A DNA stretch of 22,774 nt from a virus (IMGVR_UViG_2675903366_000010:1-22774), one strand, 5' to 3'. Shown: positions 18,797 to 19,252, counted from the first letter of the stretch. Made by a program: numbers and translations. Notes: generated by a model from the sequence alone, not told the origin.

Positions 18797-19225
18797 TTGG
18801 CTGCATAAATAATATTTTAAGTTGCAAGTTGGCTATTCGTAGGAATAGAACCTTAGGCATGCTGAATGCGTTTTCTGAACATTGTTTTATAAACTGTGTC
18901 TGCTTGCTGTTGTGATCCTGCTTTTAGTGATGGTGATGATGGATTTCACCAGCAGGATAATGTTGGTACTGACAGATGGCGCTCTGGTCTGCGGCATTGT
19001 GGTATTGCTGTGGCCGATGATGAAAGAACAGAATGAATAATTCTTGACTTTTTTGTTTACTGTTTATTAAAAAATCAACCGCATGGTGAATCCTCCTTGG
19101 AGGGGCTAAATGATCGAGTTTTAAGGGCACGTAGCGAGTTCTGTTTGATCATTGCAGAACTTAGCGGGAGGCGCCATGCGTACATCACTAGTGTTATTCC
19201 TTTTATCATTTTCCTTGTGAGTTCT

Positions 19226-19252
19226 GGCTGCGCATTGCGCAGCCTTTTTTTT
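19226..19252 (+). terminator. Intrinsic terminator directly after a 14-codon mini-ORF
   Basis: GGCTGCG-cattg-CGCAGCC followed by T8. Confidence 0.75.

Follow-up and report, generated by a model that had tools for sequence, protein, structure and literature searches.

Gene context of the mini-ORF and terminator

The window, i.e. the complete 22,774-nucleotide stretch of viral DNA analysed here (IMGVR_UViG_2675903366_000010), carries a lambda-type Q gene (17177-17800), a lambda-type pR'/qut region at ~17844-17890 and an ORF for a 252-residue membrane protein (18038-18796). These are followed on the plus strand by the gene of a 52-residue DUF3927 ('TciB') membrane protein (18882-19040; Pfam PF13064, E 3.4e-14), on which the phage 434 and RefSeq annotations agree; a literature search on TciB/DUF3927 returned unrelated papers only. 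Further downstream, the reading frame and existing annotations place nanS-p, encoding a SASA-family sialate O-acetylesterase, at 19339-21189 on the plus strand. Holin, endolysin and Rz genes are also found in the surroundings.

Between the DUF3927 gene and nanS-p, a GGGAGG motif (19166-19171, plus strand) is separated by CGCC (19172-19175) from an ATG (19176-19178). The latter opens a 14-codon reading frame (19176-19220, plus strand), which reads ATG CGT ACA TCA CTA GTG TTA TTC CTT TTA TCA TTT TCC TTG TGA, encodes MRTSLVLFLLSFSL and stops at 19218-19220. A stem formed by GGCTGCGC and GCGCAGCC around an ATT loop occupies 19226-19244, and T8 follows directly at 19245-19252. The first-pass annotation had placed the GGGAGG, the ATG at 19176, the 14 codons, the stop, the GC stem and the T8 correctly, with the single exception of the spacer, given as 5 nt and in fact 4 nt long. 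It had read the arrangement as a leader-peptide attenuator or a small hydrophobic peptide gene with its own terminator, which could gate read-through into nanS-p or mark the 3' end of the upstream moron.

The hairpin at 19226 contains eight base pairs, seven of which are G-C, and folds in isolation with -14.7 kcal/mol. A consensus scan returned it as one of three terminator-like plus-strand sites between 17000 and 22000. A 14-codon open frame is trivially likely to occur by chance.

Correspondence with the PasD2 small RNA

Alignment of the locus with the genome of EPEC E2348/69 revealed that window positions 19081-19252 (plus strand) are 100% identical, over all 172 nt, to NC_011601.1 positions 741157-741328, and that the flanking regions match as well. 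This plus-strand interval is the published position of PasD2, a 172-nt sRNA (PMC8550237, table S6) validated by northern blot and RIL-seq in E2348/69 (Pearl Mizrahi et al. 2021, PMC8550237). For the identical E2348/69 sequence, northern blot, RNA-seq and RIL-seq have shown a discrete RNA that depends on Hfq, and Pearl Mizrahi et al. (PMC8550237) name EcOnc13 of EHEC Sakai (Tree et al. 2014, PMC4104026) as its homologue. The published 3' end of PasD2 coincides with the last U of the terminator, such that the terminator scan, folding and the published end all point to an intrinsic terminator at 19226-19252 (plus strand) with an 8-bp stem, an AUU loop and a U8 tail.

The northern probe used for PasD2, CATGCGCAGCCAGAACTCACAAGG (PMC8550237), is complementary to 19212-19235 except for a single mismatch, a fit that table S6 of that study itself states. 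The published seed UGUGAG lies at 19216-19221 on the plus strand (extended form CCUUGUGAG, 19213-19221), where it shares nucleotides with both the final sense codon and the stop of the mini-ORF. It is thus located upstream of the stem-loop and poly-U terminator (19226-19252), the arrangement that characterises PasD. The corresponding target motif is CUCACA(GG) (PMC8550237, fig. S5 and target-motif tables), and the RIL-seq targets of PasD2 include aceE, uspA, yhdW, gltI, coaE, cesF, tir and bfpB (PMC8550237). The physiological role of PasD was still undefined as of a 2026 preprint (Zhu, Shabalina & Storz).

The gene neighbourhood is likewise shared, with the DUF3927 gene upstream, nanS-p downstream and a second sRNA, PasA, past the esterase. 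The 85-nt PasA sequence recurs with 100% identity on the minus strand of the window (21423-21339), and the published placement in E2348/69 has PasD2 and PasA on opposite sides of the esterase gene. No difference exists between the window and E2348/69 in the PasD2 RNA itself. The prophage backbones do differ, with a lambda-type Q in the window and in phage 2B8 as opposed to a Q82-type Q in E2348/69 prophage PP2 and in phage 434. BLAST searches located the segment 18800-19340 in 696 of 5426 complete E. coli genomes, while the full segment was found in only two members of the phage collection, phages 434 and 2B8.

On the basis of the 172-nt identity, the probe match and the position of the seed, the mini-ORF and terminator very probably constitute the 3' half of the PasD2 sRNA gene, which lambdoid prophages carry in their late-region moron and which specifies a known Hfq-associated trans-acting RNA. 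Expression, transcript ends and Hfq binding are ascribed to the window by transfer from the identical or near-identical copies in E2348/69 and Sakai, and should be read in that light. PasD2 has already been described, and the locus does not hold a new element.

A scan of the whole window against Rfam at the gathering thresholds returned nothing at the PasD2 locus. Under permissive settings, STnc100 (RF02076), a prophage-borne sRNA family of gammaproteobacteria, was matched along all model positions (1-206) with 41.4 bits (E 1.3e-7), a score below the 47-bit gathering threshold. This distant match agrees with the statement that PasD and STnc100 are structural homologues (2026 preprint, Zhu, Shabalina & Storz).

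Two pattern scans of public contigs were used to assemble a set of approximately 200 loci. Family members share a conserved 5' scaffold, GCAUGGUGAAUCCCCCUGUGCGGAGGGGC ... GGRUUCAG-loop-CUGAAYUC-A-CCGGGAGGCACCCGG-CACCAUGC, followed by a variable tail that ends in an intrinsic terminator. PasD2 and STnc100 have in common GCAUGGUGAAUCC..GGAGGGGC, a pseudoknot strand, the helix H3, a GGGAGGC element, a CAYCAUGC closing arm, and the variable tail with its terminator. When the STnc100 scaffold is traced in PasD2, the closing helix H1, H3 and the pseudoknot are all present, while the 3' arm of the hairpin containing GGGAGG is deleted and hairpin 1 is shortened. In STnc100 a separate hairpin, CCGGG-AGGCA-CCCGG, contains the GGGAGG (98% of its cells are paired in alignment A3), whereas PasD does not possess the CCCGG arm. 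The shortened hairpin 1 of PasD carries CCUCC where STnc100 has CCCCC, making it a perfect complement of GGGAGG; we infer that this change compensates for the lost CCCGG arm. The PasD seed also differs from that of STnc100. 'Hybrid' members combine an STnc100 scaffold with a PasD-type terminator, some metagenomic viral contigs contain tandem arrays of 3-5 family units, and in one arrangement a member is located directly after stx2B.

The GGGAGG motif and AUG in the predicted RNA fold

Folding of the 172-nt RNA with RNAfold yields a minimum free energy of -58 kcal/mol (z = -3.07). In the predicted structure the 5'-terminal segment GCAUGGUG (19081-19088, plus strand) pairs with CGCCAUGC (19172-19179, plus strand) at a probability of ~1.0, forming the 5'-terminal closing helix H1, the 3' arm of which holds the 'start codon' of the mini-ORF. 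Both prediction and covariation support this arm, and 99.7% of H1 cells are paired in alignment A3. The anti-SD-like strand CCUCCU (19092-19097, plus strand) pairs with GGGAGG (19166-19171, plus strand) with a probability of 0.8-0.9. The latter motif, which the first-pass annotation had taken for a strong ribosome-binding site, is a conserved scaffold element unchanged in 48 of the 49 A3 sequences.

The remainder of the scaffold comprises helix H3 (GAGUUCUG ... CAGAACUU, 19136-19162, plus strand) and a pseudoknot. All eight H3 pairs are present in PasD2, and three pairs display compensatory changes in A3, affecting 34 cells. The H3 loop (19146-19153) provides the 3' strand of the pseudoknot, with eight bases complementary to the 5' strand AAUGAUCG (19109-19116, plus strand) in PasD2. 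Pseudoknot pairs covary across the family, with AUCAGC/GCUGAU, CUGGUG/CACCGG, AAUGAC/GUCAUU, AUCAGUAC/GUACUGAU and CUAGRC/GUCUAG all found. A comparison of cognate with non-cognate strands gave means of 7.1 and 5.25 and did not separate the groups, the class filter being too lenient; the pseudoknot hence rests on the covarying pair types listed and not on this statistic. Taken across the 49-sequence alignment, the four scaffold helices are 98.6% paired, compared to 36-49% when the partners are slid.

Partition function calculations for PasD2, using a model that ignores the pseudoknot, give a mean unpaired probability of 0.045 for GGGAGG and of 0.001 for the AUG, and forcing 19164-19189 open is predicted to cost 17.8 kcal/mol. 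The exact partner of GGGAGG is uncertain, as the models allow either pairing with the distal CCUCCU or an unpaired state in which CCUC is taken up by a local hairpin; the CCUCCU strand can alternatively form a 4-bp local hairpin with GAGG at 19100-19103. Formation of this local hairpin 1 would expose the SD motif but leave the AUG enclosed in H1.

The H1 pairing was assessed by a covariation scan anchored in the GGGAGG hairpin, so that neither H1 arm was fixed by the query. It gave 112 distinct variants in which the closing helix could be recognised; AUG occupies the homologous position in 69 of them, and 42 carry no start codon there. The triplet covaries with its 5' partner, the combinations being CAU/AUG, UGU/ACA, UGU/ACG, UAU/AUA and CGU/ACG. 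This partner covariation, together with loss of the start codon in 42 of the 112 variants, indicates that the AUG triplet is kept for pairing and not for initiation. It represents a clean case of an apparent start codon acting as a helix residue, and calls for caution in the prediction of small ORFs within sRNAs.

Matches to GGAGG-N3-9-ATG occur nine times in the window compared to 3.7 ± 1.9 expected, and three of the nine are located within the single 172-nt PasD2 RNA. The combination of SD and ATG in PasD2 is not a chance event because the RNA is built of complementary CCUCC/GGAGG and CAUG/CAUG blocks, and it serves RNA structure, not translation. The proposal that GGGAGG and ATG form a translation signal is therefore not upheld, both being predicted paired strands of conserved scaffold helices.

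The body of the mini-ORF corresponds to a U-rich and mostly single-stranded stretch (19187-19215, plus strand), which the CRAC peak described below and folding suggest is the probable Hfq-binding region. The mean unpaired probability is 0.80 over 19197-19215, and a hand count on the window sequence puts the U content of 19188-19217 at 57%. The Hfq-CRAC peak reported for EcOnc13 in Sakai spans 901332-901382 (Tree et al. 2014, PMC4104026, table S2). When placed on PasD1, the allele found in Sakai, it covers nt 107-157, equivalent to the U-rich stretch together with the seed and the first arm of the terminator stem, although these coordinates may refer to an older sequence version. The EcOnc13 northern probe given in the supplement of Tree et al. 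was set aside as evidence, as it falls off the PasD1 Sakai locus and matches the upstream region of an STnc100 copy (L116). The AsxR/AgvB anti-sRNAs from the same moron region (Tree et al.) were likewise considered and dismissed: they are antisense to late transcription and have a different conserved 3' module.

Comparison of alleles shows that the peptide frame is not maintained. PasD1 differs from PasD2 at five positions, namely four substitutions and one T inserted after codon 7, and this insertion converts the mini-ORF into a 36-codon frame that extends through the terminator. PasD1 is present in E2348/69 prophage PP4, in Sakai Sp3 and in approximately half of the PasD-carrying genomes, and sits in loci where nanS-p is deleted. 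Among the ten distinct PasD-type tails, which differ by indels of 1, 5, 8 and 10 nt, the frame enters the terminator in seven; a stop ahead of the terminator was seen only in three PasD2 variants. Natural variation in the PasD terminator stem is confined to G.U wobbles. In most STnc100-type members the frame starting at the AUG also passes through the terminator, while a few stop after 1-8 codons.

By hand tally, an open frame through the terminator is seen in ~14 of 18 tail types. The shared terminator contains no stop in any frame, and we estimate by hand that a fraction of ~0.6 of tails would be open by chance; the tally set against this estimate provides no evidence of selection for open frames through the terminator in the family. 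The suggestion of a small hydrophobic peptide gene is thus not supported by conservation: the frame is broken by the PasD1 +1 insertion and by indels in homologous tails, and is specific to the PasD2 allele across homologous prophage regions. The hydrophobic character of the peptide can be explained as a by-product of the U-rich Hfq stretch, given that U-rich RNA reads as Leu, Phe and Ser, and the stop codon is simply the UGA within the seed. Published EHEC Ribo-seq data list STnc100 copies with RCV values from 0 to 3.2 and argue neither for nor against translation; the entry STnc100_1 (902843) has an RCV of 2.16 and is not tied to PasD1, and the non-coding sRNAs CyaR and RprA have ribosome-coverage values of similar size. 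Most likely, the mini-ORF is not translated.

Transcription, termination ahead of nanS-p and alternative readings

A candidate PasD2 promoter consists of a -35-like TTGACT (19044-19049, plus strand) and, 18 nt downstream, a -10-like TAAAAA (19068-19073, plus strand) that ends 7 nt upstream of the sRNA 5' end. The TTGACT is conserved in PasD-type loci, and a T(T)AAAA block at fixed distance before GCAUGGUG is the best-conserved upstream element, at 80-90% per column among 55 distinct upstream sequences. A strict promoter scan did not call TTGACT-N18-TAAAAA, which is a weak match to the consensus. It is most likely, judging from the sequence, that PasD2 is transcribed from its own promoter with G19081 as the start, equal to the published 5' end. 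Pearl Mizrahi et al. (PMC8550237) group PasD2 with its upstream neighbour, and PasD2 may also originate from a 3' UTR or by processing.

We propose that transcription would start at G19081 under control of TTGACT-N18-TAAAAA, and that the first ~100 nt would fold into an STnc100-type scaffold made up of H1, H3 and a pseudoknot that joins the H3 loop to the upstream strand. The AUG would lie within H1 and GGGAGG would pair with CCUCCU (19092-97), with the 5'-terminal helix H1 probably protecting the RNA. The scaffold would be followed by the U-rich Hfq stretch and then by the seed (CC)UUGUGAG, available for pairing with CUCACA(GG) in target mRNAs, and the RNA would end at its own terminator with a U8 tail. 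The same terminator would end any read-in from the membrane-protein and DUF3927 genes or from pR', leaving nanS-p and the lysis genes silent until Q read-through occurs. The signature of strong ribosome-binding site, mini-ORF and terminator very probably denotes, at this locus, a structured sRNA as opposed to a regulatory leader.

A terminator scan detected no other strong plus-strand terminator between pR' and 19226, and the terminator found upstream of the membrane gene in phage 434 is degenerate in the window. As the first strong plus-strand terminator after pR', with the 434-type one degenerate, the PasD2 terminator is a probable barrier: in line with established lambda Q biology, it probably halts unmodified polymerase arriving from pR' or the moron, while Q-modified polymerase would read on to nanS-p and the lysis genes. 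The two remaining proposals of the first-pass annotation can hence be retained in part. The terminator does define a real transcription-unit 3' end before nanS-p, but the unit is the PasD2 sRNA plus any moron read-in. Gating of nanS-p is plausible via Q antitermination, but not by leader translation. A likely barrier between constitutive moron/pR' transcription and nanS-p with the lysis genes bears on the timing of esterase expression.

A leader-peptide attenuator, in which ribosome progress along the 14 codons decides the fate of the terminator and thereby sets nanS-p transcription, appears very improbable. The stop codon is 5 nt ahead of the stem, such that a terminating ribosome would cover the 5' arm, and in PasD1 and most relatives the frame extends through the terminator as it does in pyrBI-type coupling. 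However, the ribosome-binding site and AUG are predicted to be buried at a cost of 17.8 kcal/mol to open, the frame differs between alleles, and no regulatory codon run is present. RNA structure prediction also did not provide an alternative antiterminator hairpin: once the terminator 3' arm is masked, nothing pairs strongly with the 5' arm, and the energy difference is 12.5 kcal/mol in favour of the terminator. In 38% of family variants the AUG is missing and its partner shows a compensating change, PasD1 persists in prophages that have nanS-p deleted, and the RNA builds up as a separate, terminated species that is bound by Hfq and has numerous targets in trans (PMC8550237). With no competing antiterminator, a sequestered initiation region and a frame that is not conserved, the attenuator reading is not supported. 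We also consider it improbable to a high degree that PasD2 is a dual-function gene that additionally encodes a 14-residue hydrophobic peptide, as do SgrS/SgrT or RyhB/RyhP. The ORF in PasD2 is indeed complete: it is preceded at 4 nt by an SD-like GGGAGG, specifies a hydrophobic peptide and terminates ahead of the RNA 3' end, and EHEC Ribo-seq registers ribosome coverage on some of the STnc100 copies. Against this, the peptide is allele-specific, with PasD1, equally common in E. coli genomes, shifting the frame after codon 7; both SD and AUG are parts of the RNA structure; a 4-nt spacing is short; the U-rich Hfq site accounts for the hydrophobicity; and coverage of equal size is obtained for CyaR and RprA.

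Conventional protein-coding annotations also overlap PasD2. Phage 434 carries a TTG-start ORF of 62 codons (19097-19285, plus strand) recorded as 'putative membrane protein' CPT_434_70, complete with an RBS feature, and RefSeq lists a 'hypothetical protein' CDS under the match on the minus strand; ORFs exist on both strands. That either represents a genuine protein gene is extremely improbable. A Pfam search gave no match for either ORF, and the PasD1 indel affects both, changing the last ~28 residues of the 62-residue product; the plus-strand ORF passes straight over a strong terminator and is probably a mis-annotation across the sRNA, while the minus-strand ORF is a frameshifted pseudogene in the E2348/69 annotation. 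An abundant plus-strand 172-nt RNA arises from the locus (PMC8550237), and the protein-coding annotations of phage 434 and RefSeq over PasD2 should be held doubtful. A further reading dispenses with an independent RNA gene, with 19226-19252 simply ending the transcript that arrives from the upstream moron or from pR', and the part preceding it being a 3' UTR. The position as first strong plus-strand terminator past pR', the bracketing with the upstream gene by Pearl Mizrahi et al. and the weak promoter match would all be accommodated, but published work records a separate RNA of 172 nt that depends on Hfq and has RIL-seq targets (PMC8550237). The 5' end moreover coincides with that of a family-wide structured domain preceded by a conserved -10-like block, and family members occur as tandem independent units and directly after stx2B. 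We thus regard a plain terminator as highly unlikely, and the PasD2 sRNA gene remains the preferred reading.

Leader-peptide attenuators such as trpL, pheL and hisL, or pyrL of pyrBI, similarly place a short ORF just before an intrinsic terminator that precedes a gene. PasD2 is unlike the trpL type in having no antiterminator, no codon run, a predicted occluded ribosome-binding site, and neither a conserved frame nor a conserved start codon. Furthermore, its terminated RNA is a stable trans-acting product, whereas that of an attenuator is a discarded leader. The dual-function sRNAs SgrS/SgrT, RyhB/RyhP and Spot42/SpfP also combine Hfq binding with a short ORF; in those cases the ORF is conserved and accessible, whereas that of PasD2 is confined to a single allele and would have to initiate within a conserved helix.

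A different role for the conserved 5' elements can be envisaged, which we consider speculative and unlikely. GGGAGG and the GGA at 19099-19101 may be retained as a protein-docking site, for instance of the CsrA (GGA) type, on the pseudoknotted 5' scaffold and not for ribosome binding, making PasD and STnc100 modular adaptors with a constant protein-binding domain and exchanged seed/terminator cassettes. In a narrower variant, restricted to the PasD2 allele, loss or unfolding of the 5' arm would make the SD and AUG accessible, and ribosomes loaded there would cover the Hfq site and the seed and counteract termination.

With respect to termination, PasD2 can be compared to lambda tR'/6S RNA and StxS of Stx phages, where the late leader likewise contains an intrinsic terminator, downstream of pR' and ahead of the lysis genes. 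In these systems, Q-modified polymerase reads through the terminator, and the terminated RNA can act as an sRNA. PasD2 differs in its position, as two moron genes and a distance of ~1.2 kb separate it from pR'; it apparently has its own promoter, and is not the pR'-proximal transcript found in tR'/6S and StxS.

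A putative pseudoknot in the PasD/STnc100 scaffold, and tandem scaffold copies

The scaffold shared by PasD and STnc100 appears to contain a pseudoknot, in which the loop of helix H3 pairs with the strand directly following hairpin 1 (window 19109-19116 with 19146-19153). The proposal draws on covariation: across the family (alignment A3 of 49 PasD/STnc100 sequences together with the related contigs L143, L153 and L170), the two strands occur as at least five covarying sequence types, namely AUCAGC/GCUGAU, CUGGUG/CACCGG, AAUGAC/GUCAUU, AAUGAUCG/UGAUCAUU and CUAGRC/GUCUAG. No pseudoknot is marked in the structure annotation that accompanies the Rfam hit at the PasD2 locus.

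On these metagenome-derived viral contigs, the scaffold is present in 3-5 tandem copies, located at 457, 710 and 963 in L143, at 1810, 2063 and 2316 in L153, and at 4463, 4717, 4970, 5434 and 8490 in L170. Most copies are spaced by ~253 nt and most differ in their 3' tails; their closing helices are devoid of AUG. This organisation looks like sRNA gene arrays with exchangeable seeds.

A repeated 8-mer and possible seed masking

PasD2 contains two copies of the 8-mer GAGUUCUG, the first forming the 5' arm of helix H3 (19136-19143) and the second spanning the seed/terminator junction (19219-19226). Either copy can pair with CAGAACUU (19155-19162), and when the PasD2 3' fragment is folded alone, the predicted fold pairs CAGAACUU with the seed copy. 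It is possible this alternative pairing masks the seed, for example once PasD2 is processed.

Protein-coding annotations across the PasD gene

In public records, the PasD sRNA gene is overlaid by annotated protein-coding genes on both strands. The phage 434 record has a 'putative membrane protein' at this position and RefSeq has hypothetical or pseudogene CDSs; in the public loci, these annotations lie at L001 2798-2986, L002 1698-1939, L003 1301-1699 and L004 1767-2165. The corresponding window ORFs encode 62 aa (19097-19285, + strand) and 67 aa (19075-19278, - strand); both were tested and no family support was found for either. Comparison of the alleles reveals that the PasD1 indel alters the 62-aa ORF.

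Transcriptional context and neighbouring RNA elements

In phage 434, a terminator reading ACCC...GGGT and then T8 separates Q from the membrane-protein gene. The equivalent window region (17921-17946) is degenerate in comparison, with a broken stem, 4 nt deleted and T5 remaining, and hence transcription from pR' would be predicted to enter the moron genes. Between the holin gene and nanS-p, the window contains the 85 nt PasA sRNA (21339-21423, minus strand), 100% identical to that of EPEC E2348/69. The PasD2-esterase-PasA order is therefore present, the same arrangement as described for E2348/69 prophage PP2.

Further upstream, Rfam gathering-level matches in the nin region correspond to the adjoining c4-a1b1 (14615-14668), isrK (14628-14705) and C4 antisense RNA (14731-14815), all on the + strand within 14615-14815; together these constitute a P1/P7-type c4/IsrK RNA module. 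A lambda cIII thermoregulator is similarly matched at gathering level on the minus strand (7032-6974).
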